Positions 6,601 through 64,000 of a stretch of 64,000 bases of DNA are shown here, piece after piece (position 1 is the stretch's first letter; every line of letters begins with the position of its first letter). This stretch comes from an uncultured Planctomycetota bacterium (GTDB lineage: Bacteria > Planctomycetota > CAYMFW01). The stretch spans positions 813 to 64,812 of the forward strand of contig CAYMFW010000002.1 of assembly GCA_964389785.1 (NCBI GenBank). Reading direction: 5' to 3'. The notes under the pieces are model-generated. The model did not search any database. It had not been told where the DNA came from and saw only the letters and a list, made by a program, of their open reading frames with translations. A program made the translations under genes and the position numbers.

Positions 6601-6619
6601 GCTCCGGACGACGTGCCCG

Positions 6620-6762
6620 AACGCCGGCCCCCGCGACACCCCCGCCTTGCCTCCTCACCCCCATCCCCGTAGAATAGACCCGTCATGAAACGAGCGATAT
6701 GGGCCCTCTGCCTCACCCTCCTCCTCACCACCTCCGTACTCGCGGACGTCACCCTCTATGTG
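6620..6762 (+). repeat. repeat R2 copy C: the functional promoter, start and signal peptide of the beta-helix gene
   Basis: Master copy of the cassette found at 1030-1134 and 2528-2666. Confidence 0.85.
6647..6675 (+). promoter_or_regulatory. sigma70-like promoter TTGCCT-17-TAGAAT, 9 nt upstream of the ATG (near-leaderless)
   Basis: -35 at 6647-6652, -10 at 6670-6675, ATG at 6685. No Shine-Dalgarno sequence fits in between. Confidence 0.5.
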
Positions 6763-22610: not shown

Positions 22611-22805
22611 GTCCACCTCCGCTCTGTTTCACGGATTTCGCGAAGATGTCATTATAGCAGAATCATGTGCGAAGGTTGCGGCCCGAGAACGGATAGACGC
22701 TTCACTCCGTCTTCGGCGTTGTCGGCGCGTCGAGAAACACCATGGCATCCGCGTGTAAAGGGGAAGCAAAAGCGGTACAATGGCTTTCAGAGAAGGGACC
22801 CAAAC

Positions 22806-22952
22806 ATGAAGAGCGTCATACTCGTCGGCGACTCGATCCGCATGGGATACCAGGGAAAGGTGCGCGAACAGCTCGCGGGCCGGGCGGGGACAAGGAGCGG
22901 GAATTCTCGGGGTGCCGGTGCGACATTGACAACGATTCCCGGTGGATTATAG
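22806..22952 (+). pseudogene. truncated 5' duplicate of the SGNH hydrolase gene (first 27 codons conserved, then divergent 48-aa ORF)
   Basis: MKSVILVGDSIRMGYQGKVREQLAGRA.. versus MKTIALVGDSIRMGYQGKVREQLAGRA.. at 25209. Nucleotides 22826-22887 match 25229-25290 with a single mismatch. It retains its own TACAAT -10 (22778-22783) and RBS. Confidence 0.75.
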
Positions 22953-25198: not shown

Positions 25199-25208
25199 GG
25201 AGCGGAAC

Positions 25209-25784
25209 ATGAAGACCATCGCACTCGTCGGCGATTCGATCCGCATGGGATACCAGGGAAAGGTGCGCGAACAGCTCGCGGGCCGGGCGGACGTGTGGGG
25301 GCCGGAGCAGAACGGGGGCACCAGCGAGAACGTGCTGGCGCACCTGGAGGAATGGGCGCTCTCCCGGGGGCCGGACGTGCTTCATATCAACTGCGGCCTC
25401 CACGATCTCAAGAAGGAATTCGGCGAGGATGCCGCGGCGGTCCCGCTCGACGCGTACAGGGAAAACGTTCGCTCCATTCTGACACGGCTGAAGGACGGGA
25501 CCGAGGCGACCGCGATATGGGCGCTCACCACCCCGGTCAATTTCGAGAACCATCACAGGAACAAGGATTTCGACCGGTTCGAAGAGGACGTGGTCGCGTA
25601 CAACGAGGCCGCCTCGGAGGTCTGCCGGGAGCTGGGCGTGGCGGTGAACGACCTGTATTCCGCGGTCGTCGAGGCGGGCCCAGACCGCATCCTGCTGAAA
25701 GACGGGGTGCACTTCACGCCCGAAGGGTACGATATACTCGGCGAGCGCGTCGCTGAGTGTGTGGGATCGGCGCTGGAGGGATAG
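25209..25784 (+). CDS. SGNH/GDSL-family hydrolase
   Basis: 191 aa with block I GDSIRMG, block III-like INCGLHD, and block V DGVHFTPEGY (DxxH). Confidence 0.8.
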   Translation: MKTIALVGDSIRMGYQGKVREQLAGRADVWGPEQNGGTSENVLAHLEEWALSRGPDVLHINCGLHDLKKEFGEDAAAVPLDAYRENVRSILTRLKDGTEATAIWALTTPVNFENHHRNKDFDRFEEDVVAYNEAASEVCRELGVAVNDLYSAVVEAGPDRILLKDGVHFTPEGYDILGERVAECVGSALEG

Positions 25785-28240: not shown

Positions 28241-28519
28241 GTGATGAGGCTGTATATTGGGAACATGTCGTATGACATGACGGAGGACGATGTGAGGGAC
28301 CTGCTCGCCACTCATGGAGAGGTCGCCTCGGTGGATTTGATCACGGACAGAGATACCGGCCGCCCGAAGGGGTTCGGTTTCGCAGATATGCCGAATGATG
28401 CAGAGGCACAGGCCGCCATCAACGCGCTGAACGAGACTGAGATCCAGGGAAGGACCATCAAGGTCAACCAGGCTCGTCCGAGAGAGGAGAGGGGCGGCGG
28501 CGGCGGCGGCAGGTACTAA
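28241..28519 (+). CDS. RRM-type RNA-binding protein
   Basis: 92 aa with RNP-2 LYIGNM, RNP-1 KGFGFADM and a Gly-rich tail. An extended -10 TGtTAGAAT lies at 28214-28222. Confidence 0.9.
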   Translation: MMRLYIGNMSYDMTEDDVRDLLATHGEVASVDLITDRDTGRPKGFGFADMPNDAEAQAAINALNETEIQGRTIKVNQARPREERGGGGGGRY

Positions 28520-28541
28520 ATCCGATAGAAGCGCACAGACG

Positions 28542-28576
28542 GCCGCGCGGGCACACGCTCGCGCGGCTTTTTTATT
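28542..28576 (+). terminator. rho-independent terminator of the RRM gene
   Basis: gccgcgcg-ggcacacgct-cgcgcggc followed by ttttttatt: an 8-bp GC stem plus T run, 23 nt after the stop. Confidence 0.8.
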
Positions 28577-28596
28577 CCAATCTCCTTCCACAGGCG

Positions 28597-28784
28597 TTCT
28601 GAGATTTTCGAACACGGCGGGAGCGGGATACTCCTGAACGAGTTCGTGGTGAGACGAACGGGCCGAAGGCCCTTCCATAGTCCGTCGAACCGCGACCTCG
28701 GAGGCGCCATATCCGCATCCATGGCGCCGAGAATGAGTGAAGGGGTGTCCCGCTCCCGCATTCACGTGTTCGAAAATCTCAGAA
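28597..28784 (+). ncRNA. conserved structured element X, copy 1 (core 28617-28759 plus an extra 20-bp outer stem); candidate ncRNA or structured DNA repeat
   Basis: An 18-bp closing stem pairs 28617-28634 with 28742-28759. The internal blocks TGAACGAGTTCG, CGAACGGGC, GTCGAA, CCTCGGAGGCG and GCCGAGAATGAGTGAA are all shared with 63579-63723. The outer perfect 20-bp inverted repeat 28597-28616 / 28765-28784 overlaps the FadL-type gene stop codon. The strand call rests on two G-U pairs that form only in plus-sense RNA. Confidence 0.55.
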
Positions 28785-30077
28785 CTTCCACTCGTACCCG
28801 ACGTAGAGCTCGTGCGTGGTGACGCCGTAGTCGGCGCCCGGAACGTATCCGCCGGCATCAGGACCGAACGCGTACGTGTATCCCATGTTCAGCGTGTTGC
28901 CCCCGACGTCCACGCCCGCCCCGATGGAAAGCTTCCACGTGTCCACCACCAGCCCCCCCACCAGGGTGCGGTAGCGCTTGGGCTCGGGCGCCTCGTCGTA
29001 GAGCGCCCCGCAGCGAAGCGTCCAGCGGAGACCGGCCTTCCGCTCGTAGCCGACGGCGTACAGCACCACGTTCTTCCAGCGGGCCGGGTTGCCGTCCGAG
29101 TCGTCGAAGATCCCGGGAATCGGGCTGCCGTAGCTCGTCTTCTGCCGGTACGCACGCCAGCCCATCCACGTGGCGGAAAGCGCCAGCAGGCTCTTCTCGT
29201 CCGGGCGAAAGGCCAGGCCGGCCGCGATGCGCGTCGGGTAGTACGTCCTCACCGTAGTGCTGGTCGAGACGGTGAGCGGAATGAGCGAGTTCACCACCGT
29301 AGAGTCGCCCTTCCTCTCGAACGAATACGGCAGCTTGAGGACCAGGCCGACCGAGGTGCGCGCGCTCGGCCTTGCCAGCATGCCCAGGTTGAAGCTGAAG
29401 CCGATCCCGTCGGTGTCCTGGTTGGATTTCATGGTGTACGGAACCGCGCCGGTGCGGCACTTGTTGCAATCGACGTCGAGCAGGCCGTAGTGAAGCGCCA
29501 TCCGCACGCCCAGGTCGAGCACCGGCGAGGCGCGGTAGCCGAGCACCAGCGGGACGTTGGCCGACCCGTTCGTAAAGCTTATCTCTCCCTTCAGCGTATC
29601 GCCGCCCCCGGTCTGCATCGAGTCCTCCCACCCGGTGCCGGAGCCGGATCCGTACAGGCCGGTGCCGAACGCGATCCGGTCCCGCCGGGCGATGTACCCC
29701 AGCGCGATGGCGTGGATGGGCGCGACGATCTTCTTTGCGCTGAACGAGACCGGCTCGTCGCCGATGGGGTCGAAGAAGTCGCCGCGCGACGGGTCGCCGC
29801 CCGCGGCCAGGTTGCGGAGCGATTCGGACGAATACCCCCCGCCGGTGAAGAACTCGTACTCCAGACCGAAGCGGCGCCCCTCCGTCTGCGCGATGCCCGC
29901 CGGGTTGTAGTGGACGGCCGACCAGTCGTCGGCCACGCCGACCATGGCGTAGCCCATGGAGCGGCTGCGGGTGCCGATGCCGTTCGGCTCGGTGCCCGAG
30001 CCGCGCGCCCTCGACCCGCCGGCCAGCATCAGGGCCGCACAGAAGAGCACCTGTGATATTCCAGAAATTCGTTTCAT
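28779..30077 (-). CDS. outer-membrane transport protein, OMPP1/FadL/TodX family
   Basis: 432 aa with a signal peptide. ..GTRSRSMGYAMVGVADDWSAVHYNPAG.. is typical of the FadL family. The beta-barrel pattern ends in the terminal YVGYEWKF aromatic signature. Confidence 0.75.
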   Translation of the reverse strand: MKRISGISQVLFCAALMLAGGSRARGSGTEPNGIGTRSRSMGYAMVGVADDWSAVHYNPAGIAQTEGRRFGLEYEFFTGGGYSSESLRNLAAGGDPSRGDFFDPIGDEPVSFSAKKIVAPIHAIALGYIARRDRIAFGTGLYGSGSGTGWEDSMQTGGGDTLKGEISFTNGSANVPLVLGYRASPVLDLGVRMALHYGLLDVDCNKCRTGAVPYTMKSNQDTDGIGFSFNLGMLARPSARTSVGLVLKLPYSFERKGDSTVVNSLIPLTVSTSTTVRTYYPTRIAAGLAFRPDEKSLLALSATWMGWRAYRQKTSYGSPIPGIFDDSDGNPARWKNVVLYAVGYERKAGLRWTLRCGALYDEAPEPKRYRTLVGGLVVDTWKLSIGAGVDVGGNTLNMGYTYAFGPDAGGYVPGADYGVTTHELYVGYEWKF

Positions 30078-30230: not shown

Positions 30231-33200
30231 ATGGGGAGCAGGACGATTGGGCGGCGCGTGGTCGTTGCATCGTGTGCCTTCCTTGCCGCCTGCGCCCTCA
30301 TCCTCTTCCCCTCCATCGTGCCCGGCTCCTTCGCCGATGAGCCGGCAGACGTACCCGGCATCGGCTCCGCCGCCCGCTACCTGACGGGAACCTTCCGCGA
30401 CAGGAACGGCAAGAGCATCGACAGGATGGTCGTGCCCGGACGCCGACCGCCGAAGGTGAAGATGGCCGTCGCGTCCGTGCCGCGGGGCATTGTCGCCCTC
30501 GGGGCGAACGGGCTGGCCGACGTTCCCGCCTTCGACTGGTCCTACGGGTGCTCCGCCACCTCGGCCGCGATGATGATGGGCTACTACGACAACCTGGATT
30601 ACACGAACATGTACACCGGACCGACCAACGGCGGGGTCTGCCCCATGAACAACTCCACCTGGGGCGACGGCGAGTGCCCGCTGAGCGCGACGCACCAGGG
30701 ATACGACGGCCGCGGCATCAAGGGCCACGTGGACGATTACTGGGTCTCATACGGGAGCCCGGCGACCGATCCGTGGGTCGGCAGCTGGGCGGAGCATACC
30801 CTGGGGGACTGCACCGGCGACTACATGGGCACCAACCAGTCGGAGCTGAACAACAGCGACGGGTCGACGACGTTCTACAACTATACGGACGGCGAGCCGC
30901 TGTACGACTACACCGCCTGTGAGCCCGACAGGAGAGACGGCTGTCACGGGATGCGGCTCTTCGCGGAGTCGCGCGGCTACTGGGTGGAGGAGAACTTCTC
31001 CCAGTACATCTACGGGTACGACGACAACACGAAGGGCTTCACCTTCGCCGATTACCAGGCCGAGATAGACGCCGGGCGGCCCGTCGTGATCCAGGTGGCC
31101 GGCCATTCGATGCTCGGCACCGGATACGACACGGATACCTCCCTGGTCTACCTGCACGACACGTGGGATCACAACTCCCATTCGATGACGTGGGCAGGCG
31201 AGTATTCCGGCATGGAACACTACGGCGTGGCCGTGATCCGGCTCGCCCCGGCGGCCAAGCTGTCCGTCGCGGACGTGCAGGTCGACGAGGGCGCGGGCAC
31301 CGCCACGGTGACGGTCACCATGACGGGAAAGAGCTGTCTCGCGGTCTCCGTCACCTACGCCACGTCCGACGACACCGCCACCGAGGGAAACGACTACACG
31401 GAGGCGACGGGGACCCTGACGTGGAGCGCCGGCACCAACGGCGACAGGACGTTTTCCGTGACGATCGCCGAGGACGCGGTGTCCGAAGGAAACGAAACGG
31501 TGAGCATAACCCTGTCCGGCGCGCAGAACACGCTGATAGAGGACGGAAGCGCCGTGCTCACCATCCTGGACAACGAGAGCCCGGACATGGTGGTCGATCC
31601 GGTGTCCGGCCTTACCACCACGGAGGCGGGAGGTACCGACACCTTCACCATCGTGCTCGACACCAAGCCCTCCCACGACGTGACGATACCCCTTTCCAGC
31701 TCGAACCCGGACGAGGGAACGGTGAGCCCCGCATCCGTCACGTTCACCCCCGGCAACTGGGACACCGCCAGGACGGTGACGGTCACGGGCGTGGATGACG
31801 ACGCGGACGACGATAATGTCGCGTACACCGTCATCACCGGCGCCGCGACCAGCTCCGACGCCGGCTACGACGGAGTCGATCCGGACGACGTGTCCGTGAC
31901 CAATAACGACAACGATACCGCCGGCATCACGGTCAGCCCCACCGGCGGGCTTCAGACGACGGAGACCCTGGGAATCGCCACGTTCACGATAGTGCTGGCG
32001 ACCGCGCCGACACACAACGTGACGATAGCGCTCACCACCTCGGACGATACGGAGGGGACTGTGTCCCCCGCGTCCGTTACGTTCGTCCCGGGAGAGTGGA
32101 ACGACCCGAAAACGGTGACGGTGACGGGGGTCGACGACGTGCAGGTCGACGGCCCCGTCGGCTACAACATCGAAACCGCGGCCGCCGTCAGCGACGACGC
32201 GAAATACTCCGGCATCGACCCGGACGACGTGTCCGTGACGAACACGGACAACGACACCCCCGGCATCACCGTGACGCCCACGAGCGGGCTGACGACCACC
32301 GAGGCGGAGGGCACCGCGACCTTCACCATAGTGCTCCACACACAGCCGACCCACGACGTGACGATAGCGCTTTCCAGTTCGAACACCGACGAGGGAACGG
32401 TCTCTCCGGCCTCCGTGACGCTCACGTCCGGTAACTGGGACACGCCCAGGACGGTGACGGTGACCGGCGTGGGCGAAGACATCGACGACGGGGACGCCGC
32501 GTATACGATAGTCACGGCCGCCGCGGAGAGTGACGATCTCGTTTACCACGGCGTGAATCCCGATGACGTGTCCGTCACGAATATCGACGACGACACCGCG
32601 GGCGTGACGGTAGACCCCGCGTCCGGCCTTACCACGACGGAGGCGGGAGCGTTCGACACGTGTACGATCGTCCTGGACTCCGAGCCGACCGCCGACGTGA
32701 CGATACCCCTTTCCAGCTCGAACGCGGACGAGGGAACGGTGAGCCCCGCGTCCGTCACCTTCACTTCCGGCAACTGGGATACCGCGAAGACGATAACGGT
32801 GACCGGAGTGGGCGATTCGATCGACGACGGCGACGTCTCCTATCATATAGTCACCGGCGCCGCGACGAGCGGCGATGGAAAATACTCGGGAATGGACGCG
32901 GAAGACCCGTCGGTTACGAACACGGACGACGACACGGCCGGCGTCACCGTGTCCCCGACGTCCGGCCTGGTGACGAGCGAAGCCTCGGGCGGCGCCGGCT
33001 TCACGGTGGTGCTCACGAGCGAGCCGACCCACGACGTGACGATACCGCTTTCCAGCTCCGACGCGACGGAGGGAACGGTATCCCCCTCTTCCGTGACCTT
33101 CACTTCCGCCGACTGGGACCAGGCGAAGCCGGTGTCGGTGCAGGGCGTGAACGACGACGTGGATGACGGAAACGTGGGGTACACGATAACCATCGGCCCG

Positions 33201-36200
33201 GTGACGAGCGATGACGCGACGTACGCCGCGATCGACCCCGACGACGTATCGGTCGTCAATAACGACGACGACACCGCCGGCGTGACCGTCGCGCCCGTAT
33301 CCGGGCTGGTCACCTCGGAGGGCGGGGCAACCGACTCGTTCACGGTGGTACTGACGAGCGAGCCGACGGACGACGTGACGATAACGTTTGTCAGCTCGGA
33401 CGTGACGGAGGGGACCGTCTCGCCCGGAGCGGTGACCTTTACCGCCGGCAGCTGGGATGAAGCGGTCCCGATAACGGTAACCGGCGTGAACGACGACATG
33501 GCGGACGGCGATGTCTCCTACAGCATACTCGTCGCCGCCGGAAGCGCCGACGGCACATACGCCGCCATCGATCCGGCCGACGTATCGGTCACCAACGACG
33601 ACAACGACATGCCGGGAATAACGGTGACCCCGTCGGACGGCCTGGTCACCTCCGAAGGCGGCGGCACCGCCGAGTTCACGATAACGCTCAATACCCGTCC
33701 GGGAGAAAACGTGACGATCAGCCTGGACACCTCTGACTCCGGCGAGGGGATCGTATCGCCGGCGTCCTGTACGTTCACGCCGGGCACCTGGAATAACCCC
33801 AAGACGGTGACGGTCACCGGCGTGAACGACGACGTGGACGACGGGGACGCGGCCTACCAGGTGCTCACCGCCGCGACGAGCGGTGACCCCGACTACGACG
33901 GCATCGACACGCTGGACGCGTCCGTGACGAATACGGACGACGACACCGCCGGCGTGACGGTGACCCCCACGGAGGGCCTGACGACCACGGAGGCGGAGGG
34001 CTTCGCCGAGTTCACGGTGGTGCTGGACAGCGAGCCGCTCGACTGGGTGGAGATCACCTTCGGCAGCTCCGACTACAGCGAGGGCTGGGTGGCGCCCGAC
34101 GCGATCTACTTCAGCCCCGGTGATTGGAGCACGCCCAAGACGGTGTGCATCGTCGGTGTGGACGACGACGTGGACGAGGGCGACGTGACGTATACCGCCA
34201 TTGTGGACCCGGCGGGCAGCAACGACCAGACGTACCACGGCATAGACCCGGCGGACGTCTCGGTGACGAACATCGACGACGACACGGCCGGCCTCTCCAT
34301 CAGTCCCACCGGGGGGCTGGTGACCACGGAGGCGGGCGGCACCGCGACCTTCGTCGTCACGATGGCCAGCGAGCCGACGTCGGCGGTGACGATCGACCTG
34401 ACGAGCACGGACGAGTCGGAGGGCCGGGTGAGCCCCACTCCGCTCGTATTCATGGCCGCGAACTGGAGCAAGACCCACACGGTGACGATCACGGGGCAGG
34501 ACGACGCCGTCGCCGACGGCACCGTGGCGTTCCAGGTGATAACGGACGCCGCCGTCAGCGACGATCCGCTCTACAGCGGGACAGACCTCGACGACGTGGA
34601 CGTCACCAATGACGACAACGAGGTACCCGGCGTAACGATAAATCCGACCGGCGGACTGACAACCACCGAGGCGGGCGGCTTCGCCGAATTCAGCGTATCG
34701 CTCGGATCGGAGCCAGCGGCGAGCGTCACCGTCGGGTTCTCCGTTTCGGACCCGTCGGAGGGCCAGGTGACGCCGGCGGAGGTGATCTTCACGAACCAGA
34801 ACTGGGATACGGTGCGGACGGTGACGGTGACCGGTATCGACGACGACGCGGACGACGGCGACGCGGGCTATAGCGTGGTGTCCGGCGCCGTGGTAAGCGC
34901 GGACCCGGTGTACGACGGCATAGACCCGTCCGACGTGTCGGTGACGAATACCGACGACGACACCGCCGGCATAACGGTCACCCCCACCGAGGGGCTGGTG
35001 ACCACGGAGACCGGGGGAACGGCAGCGTTCACCGTGGTGCTGACGAGCCGTCCGGGCGGCGACGTGACGATCGGCGCGGTCAGCTCGGACCTCGACGAGG
35101 GAACGGTCAGCCCTTCGTCCCTGGTGTTTTCCGACACCACCTGGGACGAGCCGCAGACGGTGACCGTGACGGGAGTGAACGATGCCCTGATAGACGGTCC
35201 GGTTCCCTTCAGCGTGGTTCTCAGCCCGGCGGTCAGCGCCGATGAGGGCTACGACGGGATCGATCCGCCCGACGTCGCGGTAACGAACGCGGACAACGAC
35301 TCTCCCGGCATAACGGTCAGCCCGGTATCCGGCCTGGTCACCACGGAGGCGGGAGGCACCGCAACGTTCAGCGTCGTCCTCAATACGATGCCCACCGCGA
35401 GCGTCGAGGTCGGGCTCTCCAGCTCCGATACCGGCGAAGGAACGGTCTCGCCGGAAACGGTAACCATCACGGCCGCCGGATGGAACGTTCCCGCGATAGT
35501 AACGGTGACCGGTATCGACGACGCGGTGGACGACGGCGACATCGCCTTCACGATAGTGACGGCCGCCGCGGTCAGCGCGGACGGCGACTACGACGGCCGG
35601 GACCCGTCCGACGTCGACGTAACGAATGCCGATGATGATGAGCTCCCCACGATCAGCTTCGACGCGCCGTCGTCGAGAAGCCCCGAATCCGATTCGTTTC
35701 CGGCTCTCACCGTCTCCCTGAGCGCCGCGTATGCGCTTCCGGTGACGGTCGAGTGCGCGGTGACGGGCGGCACGGCGGACGAGGGAACCGACTTCGTTCT
35801 CCCGGGCGGCACGCTGACGTTCGCGCCGGGCGAGACCGTCGCGACCGTTCCCCTGACGGTGACCGACGACGCATTCGACGAGCCGGACGAGACGCTGGAG
35901 ATAGCCATATTCGACCCGGTGAACGCGGCACTGGGCGCGACGCGCTCACATACCTGTACCCTGGGAGATGACGACGACGTGCCGACGGTCCAGTTCCATT
36001 CCCCGATTTCCGAAGCCGACGAAGCGTGCGGTACCGCCCATATCAACGTGACGCTCTCTTCCGTTTCAGGAAAGACGGTGACCGTCGCGTATTCGGCCGC
36101 CGGAGGCACCGCGGAAGCGGGAGCCGACTACGTGCTCAACGGCGGCGCGCTGTCGTTCGCGCCCGGGGAAACGACCGCGGGTATTTCCCTCACCGTCACG

Positions 36201-37652
36201 GACGACGCGCTGTGCGATTCCGGCGAGACGGTGATCGTGCGGCTGTCCGGCCCGGTCAGCGCCGCGCTCGGCACGGACGACTATCACACCTGCGAGCTGA
36301 ACGACGAGGACCTGGACGGGGACGGGCTGTCGGACGACTGGGAGAACGCGTATCTGGGCGGAACGGACGCCGGCCCGGATGACGATGGCGACAATGACGG
36401 GGCGTCGAACGGCGACGAGAGCGACGCGGGGTCCGACCCCTCCGATCCGGATACGGACGACGACGGCGTCTATGATGGAAGCGACGACTTCCCGACCGAC
36501 CCGGACGAACAGACGGACACGGACGGTGACGGCGTCGGCAACAACCTGGACACCGACGACGACAACGACGGCGTCGAGGACGGAGAGGACGCGTTCCCGA
36601 CGGACCCGGGCGAGCAGACGGACACGGACGGTGACGGCACCGGCAACAACGCGGACACGGACGACGACGATGACGGGGTCTCCGACGAACGGGAAGGAGA
36701 GATCGGAACGAATCCTCTCGATCCCGATACGGACGGGGACGGCACGATCGATTCCGGCGCTGGAACCGACTCCGACGGGGACGGCATCGTGGACGACGCG
36801 GACGACGAGGACCTGGTGCCGATAGAGGACTCCGACACGGACGGTGACGGCACGCCGAACCGCGACGACGAAGACGACGACGGCGACGGCATTCCGGACG
36901 TATCGGACGAATTCCCGTACGACACCGATAACGACGGCCTGCTGAACGGCGCCGACGACGACGACGACAACGACGGCATCGCGGACGCGATCGACGACTA
37001 CCCGATGGACACCGACAACGACGGGCTTGACAACGCCGCCGACGAGGACGACGACGGCGACGGAGTGGCCGACGTGATAGAAGCGGAGCTGGGAACCGAC
37101 CGGCTCATCGGCACGGGGGACGACGCTCCCGACATTGCGCTGCCGGAACCCGTGACGATCGATCCGACGATACCCGGCACCGTCACGTACGACTACTCCG
37201 GGCTCGAGGGCTACACGTGGGCCACGTCAATCCTGTTCGTGTACCGGGCCCAGGAGCTTACCGGGACGCTCGCCCCCATCGTCAGCATTCCGAAGCCGGA
37301 CGAAGACGCGGACGCGGACGTGCCCGGCGGCTACATGGTTGCCGGCGCCGTCTTCGACATAATCGGAGAGATAGCTTCGGGACAGACCGTCCTGCTCCCG
37401 CTTCCCCTGCCGGACGAGCTCAGGGACCGGGGCCTGACCGAAGAGGACGTTGTCGTGCAGATGTTCGACGGCGAAACGTGGCAGGACGAGGGAACGGTTA
37501 TCAGTGTCGCCGACGGCGTGGTGACGACGGAGGTCTCCCACTTCTCCCGCTGGAGAATCCTGGTGCCGGCACCCGCCGGTTCGAGCGGAGGCGGCGGCGG
37601 CTGTTTCCTGCGATCCGCCGGAGGGGCTTTCTTTTCCCGCAACCAGGACTGA
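30231..37652 (+). CDS. giant secreted adhesin-like protein: papain-like (C39-like) N-domain, Calx-beta domains, 12 tandem ~113-aa repeats, thrombospondin-type-3 Ca-binding repeats
   Basis: 2473 aa with a signal peptide. FDWSYGCSATSAAMMMGYYD (Cys) ... VAGHSMLGTGYD (His) form a papain-like pair. The Calx-beta pattern ..VTYATSDDTATEGNDYTEATGTLTW..G....F.V.I..D...E.NE.. appears at aa ~345-450 and twice near aa 1810-2020. The Asp-rich DTDGDGVGNNLDTDDDNDGV repeats span aa ~2030-2290. Confidence 0.85.
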   Translation: MGSRTIGRRVVVASCAFLAACALILFPSIVPGSFADEPADVPGIGSAARYLTGTFRDRNGKSIDRMVVPGRRPPKVKMAVASVPRGIVALGANGLADVPAFDWSYGCSATSAAMMMGYYDNLDYTNMYTGPTNGGVCPMNNSTWGDGECPLSATHQGYDGRGIKGHVDDYWVSYGSPATDPWVGSWAEHTLGDCTGDYMGTNQSELNNSDGSTTFYNYTDGEPLYDYTACEPDRRDGCHGMRLFAESRGYWVEENFSQYIYGYDDNTKGFTFADYQAEIDAGRPVVIQVAGHSMLGTGYDTDTSLVYLHDTWDHNSHSMTWAGEYSGMEHYGVAVIRLAPAAKLSVADVQVDEGAGTATVTVTMTGKSCLAVSVTYATSDDTATEGNDYTEATGTLTWSAGTNGDRTFSVTIAEDAVSEGNETVSITLSGAQNTLIEDGSAVLTILDNESPDMVVDPVSGLTTTEAGGTDTFTIVLDTKPSHDVTIPLSSSNPDEGTVSPASVTFTPGNWDTARTVTVTGVDDDADDDNVAYTVITGAATSSDAGYDGVDPDDVSVTNNDNDTAGITVSPTGGLQTTETLGIATFTIVLATAPTHNVTIALTTSDDTEGTVSPASVTFVPGEWNDPKTVTVTGVDDVQVDGPVGYNIETAAAVSDDAKYSGIDPDDVSVTNTDNDTPGITVTPTSGLTTTEAEGTATFTIVLHTQPTHDVTIALSSSNTDEGTVSPASVTLTSGNWDTPRTVTVTGVGEDIDDGDAAYTIVTAAAESDDLVYHGVNPDDVSVTNIDDDTAGVTVDPASGLTTTEAGAFDTCTIVLDSEPTADVTIPLSSSNADEGTVSPASVTFTSGNWDTAKTITVTGVGDSIDDGDVSYHIVTGAATSGDGKYSGMDAEDPSVTNTDDDTAGVTVSPTSGLVTSEASGGAGFTVVLTSEPTHDVTIPLSSSDATEGTVSPSSVTFTSADWDQAKPVSVQGVNDDVDDGNVGYTITIGPVTSDDATYAAIDPDDVSVVNNDDDTAGVTVAPVSGLVTSEGGATDSFTVVLTSEPTDDVTITFVSSDVTEGTVSPGAVTFTAGSWDEAVPITVTGVNDDMADGDVSYSILVAAGSADGTYAAIDPADVSVTNDDNDMPGITVTPSDGLVTSEGGGTAEFTITLNTRPGENVTISLDTSDSGEGIVSPASCTFTPGTWNNPKTVTVTGVNDDVDDGDAAYQVLTAATSGDPDYDGIDTLDASVTNTDDDTAGVTVTPTEGLTTTEAEGFAEFTVVLDSEPLDWVEITFGSSDYSEGWVAPDAIYFSPGDWSTPKTVCIVGVDDDVDEGDVTYTAIVDPAGSNDQTYHGIDPADVSVTNIDDDTAGLSISPTGGLVTTEAGGTATFVVTMASEPTSAVTIDLTSTDESEGRVSPTPLVFMAANWSKTHTVTITGQDDAVADGTVAFQVITDAAVSDDPLYSGTDLDDVDVTNDDNEVPGVTINPTGGLTTTEAGGFAEFSVSLGSEPAASVTVGFSVSDPSEGQVTPAEVIFTNQNWDTVRTVTVTGIDDDADDGDAGYSVVSGAVVSADPVYDGIDPSDVSVTNTDDDTAGITVTPTEGLVTTETGGTAAFTVVLTSRPGGDVTIGAVSSDLDEGTVSPSSLVFSDTTWDEPQTVTVTGVNDALIDGPVPFSVVLSPAVSADEGYDGIDPPDVAVTNADNDSPGITVSPVSGLVTTEAGGTATFSVVLNTMPTASVEVGLSSSDTGEGTVSPETVTITAAGWNVPAIVTVTGIDDAVDDGDIAFTIVTAAAVSADGDYDGRDPSDVDVTNADDDELPTISFDAPSSRSPESDSFPALTVSLSAAYALPVTVECAVTGGTADEGTDFVLPGGTLTFAPGETVATVPLTVTDDAFDEPDETLEIAIFDPVNAALGATRSHTCTLGDDDDVPTVQFHSPISEADEACGTAHINVTLSSVSGKTVTVAYSAAGGTAEAGADYVLNGGALSFAPGETTAGISLTVTDDALCDSGETVIVRLSGPVSAALGTDDYHTCELNDEDLDGDGLSDDWENAYLGGTDAGPDDDGDNDGASNGDESDAGSDPSDPDTDDDGVYDGSDDFPTDPDEQTDTDGDGVGNNLDTDDDNDGVEDGEDAFPTDPGEQTDTDGDGTGNNADTDDDDDGVSDEREGEIGTNPLDPDTDGDGTIDSGAGTDSDGDGIVDDADDEDLVPIEDSDTDGDGTPNRDDEDDDGDGIPDVSDEFPYDTDNDGLLNGADDDDDNDGIADAIDDYPMDTDNDGLDNAADEDDDGDGVADVIEAELGTDRLIGTGDDAPDIALPEPVTIDPTIPGTVTYDYSGLEGYTWATSILFVYRAQELTGTLAPIVSIPKPDEDADADVPGGYMVAGAVFDIIGEIASGQTVLLPLPLPDELRDRGLTEEDVVVQMFDGETWQDEGTVISVADGVVTTEVSHFSRWRILVPAPAGSSGGGGGCFLRSAGGAFFSRNQD
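31581..35642 (+). repeat. 12 tandem coding repeats (~339 bp / ~113 aa each) inside the giant gene
   Basis: The unit is (P/A)G(I/V)TV.P..GL.T(T/S)E.GG.A.F...L...P...V.I.L.SSD..EG.VSP..V.F....W...(K/R)TVTVTG(V/I)(D/N)D...DG...Y.(I/V)......S.D..Y.G.DP.DV.VTN.D(D/N)D. I counted 12 consecutive units in the translation. Confidence 0.9.
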
Positions 37653-60433: not shown

Positions 60434-61705
60434 TCAGCCGAGCCGGGGAAGCGTGGTGTATCCCTCCGGCAGTATGTGAACGAGGGGCCGGTCGGTTTCG
60501 AGATGCGCCGCGGCCTTCTCCAGTGCGTCAGCCATGTCCGAGGCGCGTTCCACCCCCAGGAGGGCCGCCCGCGCGTCGTCCATCTTCGTTACCATTATCG
60601 TGTGCACCGCCTGCGTCTTCAGCCTGTGCGCCAGCGCGGTGTGTCCGGATATCTGGAAGTGGTCCTTCAGCCGCTTCTCGTGCTCCTCTATGGACGGCAC
60701 CGCCAGGTACTCCTCCAGGATCTCGTTGCCCAGCCCGTCGCGGCACTCGGCCGCGAGAATGACGACCCCGCCTTTCTTCACCGCGTAGAACGCGTTGTCG
60801 TACGCCTTGTGAGACTGTATGTAGTTGATGTCCTTCGGATAGCCGCCGGGCGTCGCGATCACGACGTCGGCGTGCTCCCCTATCTTCACCGCGAAGTGCG
60901 CCGTCACCGTCTCGCACGCCTTCCGATGCGCCTTCTCCCAGTCACCCGCGAATACGGCGGCGATCTCCCGCCTGTCGTTCAGCACCACGTTGACGAGGAA
61001 GTCGGGCGAGACCATCCGGGTCGCTTCGGTCATGTCTTCGCTCACCTCGTTGCCGTCCAGCTTCGCGGGCCTGCAGTGCGGGTTCCTGCCGCCCCCGGGA
61101 TCCATCGTGAAGGCGTGATTCCTGACGATCGTTTCCTCGGCGCAGATTCCGGGCAGGACGCTCTTGCGCCCGCCGCCGAAACCGGCGAAGTAGTGAAACT
61201 GCGCGGTGCCGGTGATCACCAGCCGGTCCGCCTCGTGCGCCATCCGGTTGATCCGCACCGGCGTGCCCGCCCCGGTGGTGCCGACGCTCACCATGTCCTC
61301 CGCGCGGCAGTCGTGGTCCACCAGCCGGACCCGTGAGGTGACCTCTTCTCCAACGATGGCCCGTCGCTCCTCGTCCGTGTGCATCGCGTGGGTGCCGCAG
61401 GCGAACAGGACGGTGATGCCGGGATCCGGCACCCCCGCGTCGTTCGCCGCGTTCAGAAGGACCGGCAGCACGACGCCCGCGCCGGTGATCCGTGTCTTGT
61501 CGGACACGACGATCACCAGGCTTCCCGCCCCGTCGAGCACCTCGGTCAGCGGCGGGGAGGATACCGGGTGCGCGACGGCGCGCGCGACCTCCCCCGCCGG
61601 GTCCTCGAGTGACGGCATGCCCTTCGGCACCAGCAGGGACGGCCGCCACCCATCGGGCAGCTCGAAATCGACCTGTCCGTCCCCGTAGCCGATTGAGGGC
61701 ATCAT
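60434..61705 (-). CDS. larA: LarA-family (nickel-pincer cofactor dependent) 2-hydroxyacid racemase/epimerase homolog
   Basis: ATG at 61705 (GGGGAG RBS) overlaps the upstream stop (ATGA). VIVVSDKTR, ACGTHAMHTDEE and QFHYFAGFGGGRKSVLPG (the Lys that tethers the cofactor in LarA) fit the DUF2088/LarA family. The track start at 61831 lies inside the upstream gene. Confidence 0.8.
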   Translation of the reverse strand: MMPSIGYGDGQVDFELPDGWRPSLLVPKGMPSLEDPAGEVARAVAHPVSSPPLTEVLDGAGSLVIVVSDKTRITGAGVVLPVLLNAANDAGVPDPGITVLFACGTHAMHTDEERRAIVGEEVTSRVRLVDHDCRAEDMVSVGTTGAGTPVRINRMAHEADRLVITGTAQFHYFAGFGGGRKSVLPGICAEETIVRNHAFTMDPGGGRNPHCRPAKLDGNEVSEDMTEATRMVSPDFLVNVVLNDRREIAAVFAGDWEKAHRKACETVTAHFAVKIGEHADVVIATPGGYPKDINYIQSHKAYDNAFYAVKKGGVVILAAECRDGLGNEILEEYLAVPSIEEHEKRLKDHFQISGHTALAHRLKTQAVHTIMVTKMDDARAALLGVERASDMADALEKAAAHLETDRPLVHILPEGYTTLPRLG

Positions 61706-63534
61706 CTCCCCTTCAGCGCCGCGGAGTACGCGGCCCGGTAGTGACCGATCACCTCGGACCAGTCGAACAGGTGCGACACCCGCTCGACCCTGTTGCGCAG
61801 CTCGCGCCGCTGGCGCCTGTTCAAACGACAAAAGTCATATAGGAAATCGGTGAGGCTTTCGACCGTTTGTTTCGCGGTCCGGCCGTGCCGGTTGATGACG
61901 CACAGCCCGTTGGCCTCGTAGTCAGGAAGGATCTTGACCAGGTGGTTGCCGAACCCGCTCAGGTCACTCGCGACCGCCGGGATGCCGAGCGCGACACACT
62001 CCATCGGGGTGTAGCCCCACGGTTCGTAGTACGACGGGAACACCCCGAGATTGCAGCCGCGGACGAACTGCTGGTAATCCAGACCGAGAATCGGGCTGGT
62101 GCTCGCGACGAACTGAGGATGGAACACCACCTTCACCCGGTCCTTCTCCGCGTTCAGAAGGCCGCAGGCCCGCAGCTTCTGGATCACCGGGTCACCGTCC
62201 GGGTCCGTCAGGTCGTGCGTCACGTTGCGGGGGAGCTTCTTCGACTGCCACGCCAGCATACTCCGCCGTATCCGAAGCGCCTGCGTCTCCGTAAAGACGT
62301 CCTTCGAGTCGGGAATCCTTCCCTCGACTACCCGCTGGAAGAGCCGGGTGCCCATGTCGTGCTCGACCGAGCCGCAGACCTGGCGGAGCTCGTGGTACAA
62401 CGCGTGCTGGCTCAACACGTCCACGTTGATGCTGCGGACGTCCGCGTTGGCGACGATGAAGCCGACCACGGTGAGGTCCATGTCGTCTTCGATCAGGCGA
62501 CGGTTCAGCGTCGCGAGGCTCTCTATGAATATGTCTTTGCCCTTGTTCCGGTATTCGTAGCGGCCCGCCGTAAACAGGTAGACGGTCGTGTCCAGGTCGA
62601 AGGTATAGGAGCCGAAGAAGTGTCCGGTGACGAAGTCGTGTATCCGGGCCTTGTAGATGCGGTGGAGCGCCTGGAATTCATCCGGCGCCTCGAATTGGCT
62701 TATGCTCAGCCCGTTCGGGACGATGAAATCCGACTTCCGGCCCAGCAGCTTCAGGGCTTCTCCCGCGGACAGATCGGACACCGTGGTGAACACGTCCGCT
62801 TCCTGCACCGCGAGCCGCTCGAGCGCGTACCGGGAAGGAATGCCGAGCTGTCTCGCTTCCTTGACCGGATTCACCTTGTCGAGCAGGCCGTAGAAGTCCT
62901 CGCTGGCCGAGCTCATGTACCTGCCCAGCAGCGTGCCGTGCGTGGTGAAGATGGTCGCGACGGGTATCCCATGCTTCCTGATGAGGGGAACGGCCACGCC
63001 GCCCATCCACTCGTGGAAGTGCGCGATCAGCGGGGTCTTCTTCGAAACTTCAGCGAATCGATCCAGAAAGTCGGCGACCTGACAGCCGAACGCGACTACC
63101 TCGTCGACCATCGCGTCCCGCACGTGGGTCTCTACATCCAGTTCCTTCCACAGAAGAAACTTGCGCCTCTCCAGCTCCGCCTCCCTCATCTTCGGTTCTA
63201 TGAGGATCGTCCTGGGGTGCCCGGGCACCAGCCACCGTCCATACCGGCACGTGACGCCGTCCCTGGTGAGCGCGTCCATCGTCAGCGCGATCGGCCCCTC
63301 CGGCATCAACTCCTCGAATTCGACGGCCGCCCTCTCCGGCACGTACGGCCCGATCATCAGGTACCGGTCGCCCCACATCTCCACCATCGCCGGGGCCTTG
63401 CTTCTCAGGACGGTGTAGATTCCGCCGAGCTGGTTGCACACCTCCCACGCGACTTCGCACAGGAAGGCGTCGTCGACGGACGGCGCGGATTTCCGCTTCT
63501 TCGACGGGGACCCTTTCTTCTTCTTCGTTACCAT
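61702..63534 (-). CDS. GT3-family (animal/fungal-type) glycogen synthase
   Basis: FLCEVAWEVCNQLGGIYTVLRSKA, ..IAHFHEWMGGVA.. and ..TTHGTLLGRY.. match the eukaryote-type glycogen synthase N-terminal signatures. An unusual Lys-rich N-terminal tail MVTKKKKGSPSKKRKS is present. Confidence 0.85.
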   Translation of the reverse strand: MVTKKKKGSPSKKRKSAPSVDDAFLCEVAWEVCNQLGGIYTVLRSKAPAMVEMWGDRYLMIGPYVPERAAVEFEELMPEGPIALTMDALTRDGVTCRYGRWLVPGHPRTILIEPKMREAELERRKFLLWKELDVETHVRDAMVDEVVAFGCQVADFLDRFAEVSKKTPLIAHFHEWMGGVAVPLIRKHGIPVATIFTTHGTLLGRYMSSASEDFYGLLDKVNPVKEARQLGIPSRYALERLAVQEADVFTTVSDLSAGEALKLLGRKSDFIVPNGLSISQFEAPDEFQALHRIYKARIHDFVTGHFFGSYTFDLDTTVYLFTAGRYEYRNKGKDIFIESLATLNRRLIEDDMDLTVVGFIVANADVRSINVDVLSQHALYHELRQVCGSVEHDMGTRLFQRVVEGRIPDSKDVFTETQALRIRRSMLAWQSKKLPRNVTHDLTDPDGDPVIQKLRACGLLNAEKDRVKVVFHPQFVASTSPILGLDYQQFVRGCNLGVFPSYYEPWGYTPMECVALGIPAVASDLSGFGNHLVKILPDYEANGLCVINRHGRTAKQTVESLTDFLYDFCRLNRRQRRELRNRVERVSHLFDWSEVIGHYRAAYSAALKGR

Positions 63535-63578
63535 ATCAGAACTCCTCTATCGCTCTACCGCTGTTCTTCACGCTGCAA

Positions 63579-63723
63579 GCGGAAAGGGCAAGTTGCTGAA
63601 CGGGTTCGAGATTCGGCCGGCAGCCCGAACGGGCTATTCGATAAGCCGGTCGAAGCTCGCCCTCGGAGGCGAGCCCGTTCCTTATACGGGCCGAGAATGA
63701 GTGAAGCAACTTGCCCTTTCCGC
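63579..63723 (+). ncRNA. conserved structured element X, copy 2; candidate ncRNA or structured DNA repeat
   Basis: A 19-bp perfect inverted repeat pairs 63579-63597 with 63705-63723. It encloses the same five conserved blocks as copy 1. It ends 1 nt before the cobO-like stop codon and lies 45 nt upstream (in the minus sense) of the glycogen synthase start. Confidence 0.55.
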
Positions 63724-63724
63724 C

Positions 63725-64000
63725 TCAAAATTCTATCCCTTTTTGCGCCTTCACGCCGCCGGCGTAGGCGTGCTTGATCTCCTTCATCTCCGTGACGGTA
63801 TCGGCCGCCGCGACGATCGAATCCGGGCAACCGCGCCCGGTCAGCACCAGGTGCACCGGCTCCGGCCGGGCGGCTATCAGCCCGGTGATGTCGTCTTCGC
63901 TCAGGAGATTCTCCTTCACGGCCAGCAGCGCTTCGTCCGCGACCACCATGTCGTAGTCGCCGGAGGCGAGCCCCTCCCTCACGCGCTCCAGCGCCTTTCC
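63725..64000 (-). CDS. cobO: cob(I)yrinic acid a,c-diamide adenosyltransferase (CobO/BtuR type), C-terminal part; gene continues past the right edge
   Basis: ..YDMVVADEALLAVKENLLSEDDITGLIAARPEPVHLVLTGRGCPDSIVAAADTVTEMKEIKHAYAGGVKAQKGIEF matches the conserved C-terminus (..VLTGR....L...AD.VTEM...KH.......A..GIEF). The frame stays open to position 64000. Confidence 0.85.
   Translation of the reverse strand, partial: GKALERVREGLASGDYDMVVADEALLAVKENLLSEDDITGLIAARPEPVHLVLTGRGCPDSIVAAADTVTEMKEIKHAYAGGVKAQKGIEF

Follow-up and report, generated by a model that had tools for sequence, protein, structure and literature searches.

The locus examined here raises the question of what the 190 nt between a cobO-like gene and a glycogen synthase gene contain; in the window (the whole 64,000-nt stretch of DNA that was analysed) most of this interval is taken up by a single, strongly folded sequence. 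The neighbouring genes were identified through the Pfam marks on a public contig that carries the same locus, namely NifU, CobA_CobO_BtuR, Glycogen_syn, LarA and URO-D. The first-pass annotation of the interval had listed several possible roles for the fold, including a 3'-end element, a plus-sense RNA, an operon leader and a mobile structured DNA.

Two copies beside gene ends in the window

The fold next to cobO (copy 2) is 145 nt long, at 63579-63723, and consists of a 19-bp perfect stem around a branched core of about 100 nt (Table 1). BLAST pairs 63579-63597 with 63705-63723 in this stem, and within it CGGAAAGGGCAAGTTGCT, at 63580-63597, is repeated as its exact reverse complement at 63705-63722, whereas chance alone would give about 0.03 pairs of this kind. 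The folding energy is -91.3 kcal/mol for the plus strand of 63535-63730 (z = -5.7; none of 200 shuffles was as stable) and -88.9 kcal/mol for the minus strand of the region (z = -4.05). At its base the stem has GCGG...CCGC, a part that varies in other copies.

A BLAST search against the window revealed only one other related stretch, at 28634-28742, which shares 70% identity with the core of copy 2. This is copy 1, whose own stem (P1) is completely different in sequence from that of copy 2, and which is enclosed in a further outer stem of 21 bp that spans the stop codon of a FadL-type gene, with a 5-nt bulge, ATTCA, between its right arm and P1. As the C-terminus of the FadL-type protein has the length usual for its family, it is the left arm of the outer stem that is the inverted copy of native sequence. 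Copy 1 is additionally flanked by a 7-nt repeat, CTTCCAC.

What was first described for the placement of these copies is borne out. Both lie in the same orientation, each on the plus strand just past the stop of a minus-strand gene; P1 of copy 1 ends 19 nt from the FadL-type stop, with the outer stem overlapping that stop, and copy 2 abuts the cobO-like stop and accounts for 145 nt of the 190-nt gap ahead of the synthase gene. The interval originally given for copy 2, 63535-63724, holds the hairpin only from 63579 to 63723, its first 44 nt being a spacer outside the hairpin. It also holds that no U-tract follows the stem of either copy, and that neither forms a canonical intrinsic terminator. 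There is no U-tract terminator or sigma-70-like promoter at copy 1, no terminator-like site on either strand between 63300 and 64000, and no sigma-70-like promoter at copy 2. The sole canonical terminator near copy 1, at 28541-28578, is that of an RRM-protein gene, for which an exact-sequence look-up returned no match.

Table 1. Positions of the two copies, their parts and the adjoining gene signals in the window
Feature	Positions	Strand	Detail
Copy 1, outer stem, left arm	28596..28616	+	Inverted duplicate of the FadL-type last codon, stop and next 14 nt
Copy 1, P1 and core	28617..28759	+	67.3 bits to model R1
Copy 1, P1 (18 bp)	28617-28634 with 28742-28759	+	Two U-G pairs on the plus strand
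Copy 1, outer stem, right arm	28765..28785	+	Native FadL-type 3' end; stop at 28779-28781
Glycogen synthase start codon ATG	63532..63534	-	ORF 61702-63534
Spacer from element to synthase ATG (44 nt)	63535..63578	-	Not hairpin; holds the synthase ribosome-binding site
Synthase ribosome-binding site GAGGAG	63542-63547	-	Inside the 44-nt spacer
Copy 2, P1 5' arm	63579..63601	+	19 perfect pairs, UGAA/UGAA tandem G-A step, invariant C (63601)
Copy 2, core (three-way junction)	63602..63700	+	65.4 bits to model R1
Copy 2, GG	63602-3	+	Within the core
Copy 2, P1b (proposed)	63604-7 with 63695-8	+	GUUC with GAAU
Copy 2, P2 with apical hairpin	about 63608-63660	+	
Copy 2, invariant block CCTCGGAGGCG	63661-71	+	
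Copy 2, P4 hairpin	about 63668-63692	+	
Copy 2, invariant block CCGAGAATGAG	63691-63701	+	
Copy 2, P1 3' arm	63701..63723	+	
cobO-like stop TGA (plus strand: tca)	63725..63727	-	1 nt from the end of P1

Distribution, anatomy and strand bias of the family

A covariance model (R1) built from 39 diverse copies finds exactly two matches in the window, both on the plus strand and 35 kb apart, and at least 75 copies scoring 40-120 bits in the loci that were fetched. In a set of genomes with a single representative for each species, the blocks CTCGGAGGCG...CCGAGAATGAG gave at least 72 loci, and a scan of metagenome contigs with the two conserved blocks yielded three true homologues, which differ in their P1 sequences and in their neighbours. 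The family is present in at least five phyla, having been found in Desulfobacterota, Gammaproteobacteria, Nitrospirota, Nitrospinota and Planctomycetota-like metagenomes, with loci listed from two Desulfurivibrio isolates, Desulfobulbaceae and Desulfobacterales MAGs, Halorhodospira, Nitrospirota and Nitrospinota. Desulfurivibrio and Desulfobacterales possess many copies each, and about 20 copies among the matches listed come from a Candidatus Competibacteraceae MAG. Copies in other genomes are dispersed and often found at contig ends. The unit measures 137-145 nt in the clade of the window and 83-250 nt elsewhere, and it is non-coding, as the copies share no ORF and vary in core length by numbers not divisible by three.

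The element has no counterpart among the RNA families of Rfam 15 that were searched. The whole window gave no match at gathering thresholds, the two window copies gave nothing at E ≤ 10 bar a 10-bit terminator fragment, and the main-clade loci gave nothing at E ≤ 1, whilst a minimal copy gave long-hairpin matches far below threshold, the best being mir-3613 (29 bits against a gathering threshold of 91). The families without a match include hammerhead, twister, pistol, hatchet, HDV-like and CsrB/Rsm RNAs, as well as TwoAYGGAY, Desulfotalea-1, 6S and Y RNA. In the genome collection, the strict pattern TGAACGNGTTCG...GAGAATGAGTGAAG had no matches and GAACGNGTTCG...GAATGAGTGAA had five chance matches with no stem; viral contigs gave 5 + 5 chance matches to the patterns, with no stems and no match to model R1, and plasmids gave no blastn match to the element. 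The chance pattern matches do not score with model R1. No published description of the element was found in literature on the motif, on the taxa together with MITEs, or on CsrA together with repeats. Across the 8-kb flanks of about 65 copies, no specific protein family recurs, with no TnpA, TnpB or RAYT gene seen and no HUH or integrase gene recurring; the clusters that do recur there are ABC ATPases, sensor kinases and aminotransferases.

Each copy follows one layout, in which the long variable stem P1 is followed by C-GG-R-UU-Y, hairpin P2, CCUCGGAGGCG, hairpin P4 and CGCCGAGAAUGAG. P1 is an inverted repeat of 18-24 bp in every copy, and its sequence is free to the extent of differing even within one genome; an outer GCGGGAGC is common to four of the five copies in the window's clade. 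Inside P1, a C-G pair that does not vary leads into a GG/GA internal loop and on to a proposed 4-bp helix (P1b) formed by R-UUY with GAAU. P2, at the three-way junction, can be as small as a 4-bp hairpin or, where it holds nested insertions, exceed 100 nt; the CCUCGGA linker is single-stranded and invariant, and P4 has a GGCG...CGCC base and a variable loop, with GA following. Approximately 30 core nucleotides are invariant across phyla, although for the two scanned blocks this is partly a matter of ascertainment, with only two further copies with changed blocks coming from the model search. As judged from the aligned copies, the family is a deeply conserved three-way-junction core atop a long stem in which sequence is free and pairing is kept.

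The covariation supports this fold. Among 39 sequences and 35 pairs, 92.3% of cells are paired, compared with 64.1% when shuffled and 34-47% when slid, and there are 382 double-sided changes, a number matched by none of 500 shuffles. For P1 this may be weaker evidence of a functional fold, as arm-to-arm correction at the DNA level could keep the stem perfect, and its perfection could reflect template switching at quasi-palindromes instead of selection. P1b stands as a proposal, with one-sided changes only across the alignment. A first consensus fold from five sequences had paired CGGG with CUCG, and was abandoned as R-UUY with GAAU fits the 39 sequences better, remaining pairable throughout via G/A and C/U changes.

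The fold also favours one strand. In the 39 sequences, G-U pairs outnumber A-C mismatches 75 to 16, with the proposed P1b wobbling as G-U in 28 of the 39 and as U-G in 14, and 35 of the 39 copies fold more stably as the plus strand, the mean difference being 5.3 kcal/mol. In the window's clade, the plus strand is more stable in all five copies, by 6-14 kcal/mol. The G-U to A-C ratio and the folding energies together suggest that it is the plus strand on which the fold is selected, or at any rate tolerated, which agrees with the plus-sense reading made at first from the wobbles.

The clades differ in the motifs that they expose. The main-clade core has 4.5 GGA motifs on the plus strand vs 0.9 on the minus, and 28 of 34 main-clade P4 loops read A(N)GGAY (e.g., GGACAGGAUGUCC), which we take to match the CsrA/RsmE hairpin consensus. 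The P4 loops of the window's clade show UCC on the plus strand in five of five copies, with one GGA in the window copies, and the short 83-92-nt forms have no GGA loops. The P4 loop looks flipped between the clades.

Various other resemblances were tried and discarded. A tRNA-like T-loop fails, GGGUUCG having neither a partner nor an A58 position, and a hammerhead-like core fails with CUCGGAG...CGAGAAU being unlike CUGANGA...GAAA and with no Rfam match. A retron msr-msd is contradicted by the dispersal of the copies and the lack of a neighbouring reverse transcriptase gene; the register forbids a minus-strand cUUCGg tetraloop at the P3 tip, and a small ORF is ruled out by frames and lengths that are not conserved.

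Empty sites and transposon shells

Relatives that have cobO and the synthase gene adjacent without the element had been put forward as the check on insertion, and two were found. In both (L175 and L176, with a synthase 65% identical), the order NifU-CobO-synthase-LarA is kept, and only 2 nt lie between the cobO TGA and the synthase ATG (TACTGAACATG and TACTGAAGATG), against 190 nt in the window. A sister copy sits between convergent nth and FHA-kinase genes (L264 and L097). The nth/kinase locus L264 and the window's cobO locus (L001) come from the same sequencing run, SRR9710702, and the nth/kinase copy probably belongs to the organism of the window as its third. In a relative with an Nth 85% identical (L263), the nth TGA is followed by 9 nt and the kinase stop, with no element, and in another, with 90% identity, the nth and kinase genes overlap. 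Where the element is present, Nth gains 10 residues and terminates at a TGA that belongs to the element, and the kinase gains two codons; the flanks align on both sides, with no target duplication visible.

Comparison of these filled and empty loci shows that the insertion of copy 2 split a cobO-synthase pair lying only 2 nt apart in relatives, and that the sister copy entered a 9-nt gap between nth and the kinase gene, rewriting both C-termini. As the empty sites come from distant relatives (65% and 85% protein identity), the exact boundaries of the insertion at the cobO site are blurred. There, the 44-nt spacer resembles the last ~36 nt of cobO including the TGA, in frame (...VK...IE(E)F-stop), with a local alignment score of 24 against 15.6 +/- 2.9 for shuffles, 30 of 2000 of which score as high. 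Copy 2 may therefore be flanked by a diverged duplication of about 36 nt. In the relatives, the ribosome-binding site of the synthase gene is inside the cobO tail, and in the window it is in the spacer. Insertion at gene ends in this clade is thus accompanied by remodelling, with a duplicated gene tail apparently supplying a ribosome-binding site at cobO, and two new C-termini at nth/kinase.

Two likenesses between element and target were observed alongside. At the stop codon, each of the three empty sites has TGAAC or TGAAG, and the junction motifs of the element, CTGAAC and GTGAAG, are similar. The stems by the window copies hold inverted target-like sequence, in the outer stem of copy 1 and possibly in P1 of copy 2 when set against the cobO tail. 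Together with the P4 loop that looks flipped between clades and the variable but fully paired middle of P1 in one Desulfurivibrio genome, these likenesses may hint at a route of insertion or repair that copies one arm from the other.

In other lineages, the module is found inside transposon-like shells. In the Competibacteraceae MAG, the unit has ends (TA)CGGATCC...GGATCCG(TA) at A-TA-T sites, which are typical of families that duplicate TA, such as IS630. The Desulfobacterales MAG MNYK01 has the module within a unit of about 200 bp with ends GTAACTATCCAGCGG... and ...GCTGGATAGTTAC, bordered by 8-bp direct repeats (GAACCATG, GATGTAAG and AAAAAAC(G/A)) at all three sites that are readable on both sides. 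These ends and the 8-bp repeat match those of ISDge4, a member of the ISBst12 group of the IS66 family with ends GTAACTGCTCAGCA and an 8-bp repeat (PMC12898284). The two kinds of shell indicate that the same core is carried by different types of transposon. The module is therefore shown to be multicopy in several phyla and, in some lineages, to lie inside shells with their own terminal inverted repeats and target duplications.

Weighing the explanations

The reading favoured here, at a probability of roughly 0.6, is that copy 2 is an inserted selfish repeat of about 140 nt, interspersed and constrained by its structure, of a kind similar to ERIC and Correia elements. Like those, it is about 100-150 bp, non-coding, imperfectly palindromic, and intergenic or 3'-untranslated. 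ERIC and Correia elements occur in either orientation, are co-transcribed with their neighbours, affect mRNA stability or processing, and behave as miniature transposons without a transposase of their own. They are, however, restricted to one bacterial family or genus, whereas this element has a nearly identical branched core of about 60-100 nt in at least five phyla; it also differs from them in having no sequence similarity, a conserved centre instead of conserved ends, a strand-biased fold and, in the naked form of the window's clade, no target duplication.

There is a similar likeness to MITEs. The element is small and non-coding, is present in multiple dispersed copies, and shows insertion polymorphism at two loci in the window's clade. 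The MNYK01 unit resembles IS66 (ISBst12 group) MITEs in its GTAACT...CAGC ends and 8-bp duplications, and the Competibacteraceae unit resembles IS630-type MITEs in its TA-flanked ends; both units are multicopy, and contigs often break at them. The window copies, on the other hand, have neither shell and no clear target duplication. If the module were filler DNA of MITEs, the same internal module would not be expected in different IS shells, yet this is what is seen. In general, the ends of small structured repeats are conserved because the transposase reads them, and REP, ERIC and Correia elements are usually lineage-specific. Here this usual pattern is reversed, with distant phyla and several transposon shells sharing a branched centre that hardly varies, on a stem of free sequence, which argues that the centre itself is under selection.

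As a selfish repeat, the module would persist as a passenger, its fold being selected in a single-stranded plus-sense form, either RNA or an ssDNA intermediate, that is read by a putative conserved partner. In lineages with MITE-like units, IS66/ISBst12-type and TA-type transposases would copy the module by acting on the shells. We know of no transposase that acts on the naked form. Copy number in the window is low, with only two copies in 64 kb and the probable third in the same sample. At its locus, copy 2 probably has no dedicated host function, and would be a passenger that divided a translationally coupled gene pair. Directly downstream of the cobO stop, the minus-strand operon mRNA would carry a hairpin of roughly -70 to -90 kcal/mol, which may serve as an intercistronic barrier or an RNase III site, as in REP, ERIC and Correia elements, and the duplicated cobO tail would give the synthase gene back the ribosome-binding site that it had lost.

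A core that is conserved across IS shells while the ends are free points to a function of the core beyond a purely selfish model, and some 30 invariant nucleotides across phyla would be more usual in ribozymes, aptamers or sites for a specific protein. It is therefore conceivable, if tentative, that the core represents a new class of functional RNA, with a minimal form of about 60 nt (C-GG-R-UU-Y-R, P2, CCUCGGAGGCG, P4, CGCCGAGAAUGAG) acting as a ribozyme or as a protein or ligand module, spread over at least five phyla in different IS shells and, in the Planctomycetota-like clade, by duplication-free insertion 1-2 nt after TGA. Slightly more doubtful is the account in which the core is a plus-sense RNA of a new ncRNA class, either a small ribozyme that cleaves itself or an RNA that serves a conserved RNA-binding protein as decoy or scaffold, with each copy transcribed on its own or by read-through and the shells serving only as vehicles. 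Such a function would agree with the invariant nucleotides at a three-way junction whose stems covary freely, with the strand-specific wobbles and the greater stability of the plus strand, and with a core that is kept while the shells change IS type. The plus-strand GGA motifs and CsrA-like P4 loops of the main clade also agree with it, recalling the Csr/Rsm decoys (CsrB, RsmX/Y/Z), as main-clade copies hold 4-7 GGA in about 80 nt, two of them in A(N)GGAY loops.

Set against a functional RNA is that the window copies have no promoter-like or terminator-like signals, that the plus strand of copy 2 is antisense to the operon, that there is no likeness to any Rfam ribozyme or sRNA, and that dozens of near-identical copies per genome are unusual for the gene of a trans-acting RNA. 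The missing Rfam match, the missing promoter and terminator and the tens of copies per genome also separate the element from the Csr/Rsm RNAs themselves. As neither the plus strand of the window's clade (UCC in 5/5) nor the short forms have the GGA loops, a Csr-type decoy is not the common function of the family. On either reading, selfish repeat or functional RNA, the element is a small candidate (83-145 nt) for a new functional RNA or a new mobile element read through its structure.

Rather unlikely is that the host has selected the element as a cis-acting hairpin in minus-strand mRNA, in the FadL 3' UTR and between cobO and the synthase gene, where it would be a terminator, stabiliser or processing site at a 3' end or between cistrons. 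REP, ERIC and Correia elements do act as hairpins of this sort, offering an analogy, and the strong fold of the minus strand of copy 2 is consistent with it, as is the minus-strand gene end that lies 1-22 nt from the element in four of the five copies in the window's clade. Family-wide, however, the copies, which lie close to the 3' ends of genes, are mixed in their orientation to the gene end, with upstream same-strand and downstream convergent contexts about equal (about 24 vs 31). Wobbles and energies favour the other strand, no U-tract is present, a stabiliser would need no set of about 30 invariant core bases, and relatives lack the element.

The last of the roles first suggested, a mobile structured DNA that targets gene ends, stands in its general form, given the empty sites, the multiple copies and the target duplications, and fails in the specific models that had been named for it, attC and IS200/IS605. 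It is improbable, and more so than a host hairpin, that the fold is an ssDNA substrate for recombination or transposition with one strand read by an HUH transposase (IS200/IS605, REP/RAYT) or a tyrosine recombinase (attC, CTX attP). Several features would suit such a substrate: a strand-specific fold that tolerates G-T wobble, no visible target duplication at the nth/kinase site, insertion 1-2 nt past TGA at both sites with empty counterparts, the resemblance of those empty sites to the element's junctions, and the shared strand of the window copies. IS200/IS605 PATEs and REP/REPIN-RAYT systems in particular are comparable, having hairpin-forming ends, strand-specific recognition of single strands, no target duplication and a frequent position just after genes.

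Those systems, however, insert one way round only, 3' of a defined tetra- or pentanucleotide, and conserve the hairpin feet at their ends, whereas here the conserved part is the apical three-way junction and the orientation to the flanking TGA varies. Copy 2 follows the cobO TGA-G in the minus sense and the nth-site copy follows TGA-AC in the plus sense, and at one further locus (L140) two copies stand head-to-head, 60 nt apart. As the orientation differs by site and no transposase recurs nearby, the IS200/IS605 model fails. The attC sites are similar in lying right after a stop codon and in being imperfect hairpins of 57-141 nt that are read by structure on one strand. They carry R''/R' boxes (RYYYAAC / GTTRRRY) at the base and vary at the tip, however, whilst this element varies at the base and is conserved at the tip; it also forms no cassette arrays, the window copies being 35 kb apart, and has shells with transposon-type duplications. 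The attC model therefore fails for want of R boxes and cassette arrays and because the centre is conserved and the ends are variable. More generally, no HUH or integrase gene recurs near the copies, and the duplications, where they are seen, belong to ordinary double-strand transposons.

The proposal that the element is a riboswitch or cis-regulatory leader of the glycogen synthase / LarA / URO-D operon, which its large share of the synthase upstream region (145 of 190 nt) had favoured, is refuted to the point of having almost no probability left, as model R1 finds no match at 80 further synthase loci (707 kb), the two closest relatives have empty sites, other copies adjoin unrelated genes and the fold favours the strand antisense to the operon. 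For annotation, this means that the 190-nt 'leader' of the synthase gene is actually an insertion.

The family can be tested in culture, as the Desulfurivibrio isolates that carry many copies are cultivable. In one Desulfurivibrio genome, the middle segment of P1 is hypervariable among the copies and yet perfectly paired.

Flanking sequence and empty sites

The whole structure of copy 1 of the element is bracketed by a 7-nt direct repeat, CTTCCAC (28588-28594 and 28785-28791), and its outer stem of 21 bp pairs 28596-28616 with 28765-28785. This stem consists of the last codon and stop of the FadL-type gene together with the next 14 nt, duplicated in inverted form. At all three sites found empty, two between cobO and the synthase (L175:2400-2420 and L176:470-490) and one between nth and the kinase (L263:4640-4660), the stop codon reads TGAAC or TGAAG, at the position where filled genomes carry the element. 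The two P1/core junctions of the element itself read CTGAAC and GTGAAG.

Copy number and arrangement

The organism of the window probably has at least three copies of the element, since one sequencing run (Logan SRR9710702) contains both the cobO locus of the window (L001) and an nth/element/kinase locus (L264), the Nth protein of which is identical to that of a JGI contig (L097).

In Desulfurivibrio dismutans, one intergenic region (L140:1930-2215) has two family members head-to-head, a short form of 83-91 nt and a 123-nt form with 60-70 nt between them, and a third lies 1.3 kb from this pair. The elements are apparent hotspots of nested rearrangement: some of the copies from a Competibacteraceae MAG (L110, L124, L165, and L167) have an extra structured insertion of ~70 nt at the P2 tip, and in a Desulfobacterales MAG (L116) the core is partly duplicated in inverted form.

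Other features of the window

A textbook intrinsic terminator lies near copy 1, indicating that canonical terminators are in use in this genome, in contrast to the element. Downstream, a 2473-residue ORF appears to encode a giant, repeat-rich protein of surface or adhesin-like type.

Features of the window outside the element
Feature	Position	Strand	Detail
RRM-type RNA-binding protein gene	28241-28519		glycine-rich; precedes terminator
Intrinsic terminator	28541-28578	+	12-bp stem, T-run; 3' of RRM-type gene
Giant ORF	30231-37652	+
Tandem repeats	31607-35629	+	12 x 339/336 nt, 60-76% identical; within giant ORF
Asp-rich DxDxDG-type repeats	36294-37084	+	giant ORF, downstream of tandem repeats
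Repeated stretch	1030-1134; 2527-2668; 6619-6761		100-150 nt, 84-100% identical
Direct repeat	22796-22887; 25199-25290		92 nt, 91% identical

The three repeated stretches each comprise the upstream region and start of a signal-peptide-like ORF (MKRAISALILS...), and are probably the starts of paralogous genes with a promoter region in common. The direct repeat spans two gene starts (MK..VGDSIRMGYQGKVREQLAGRA), likewise probably of paralogues, placed in tandem.
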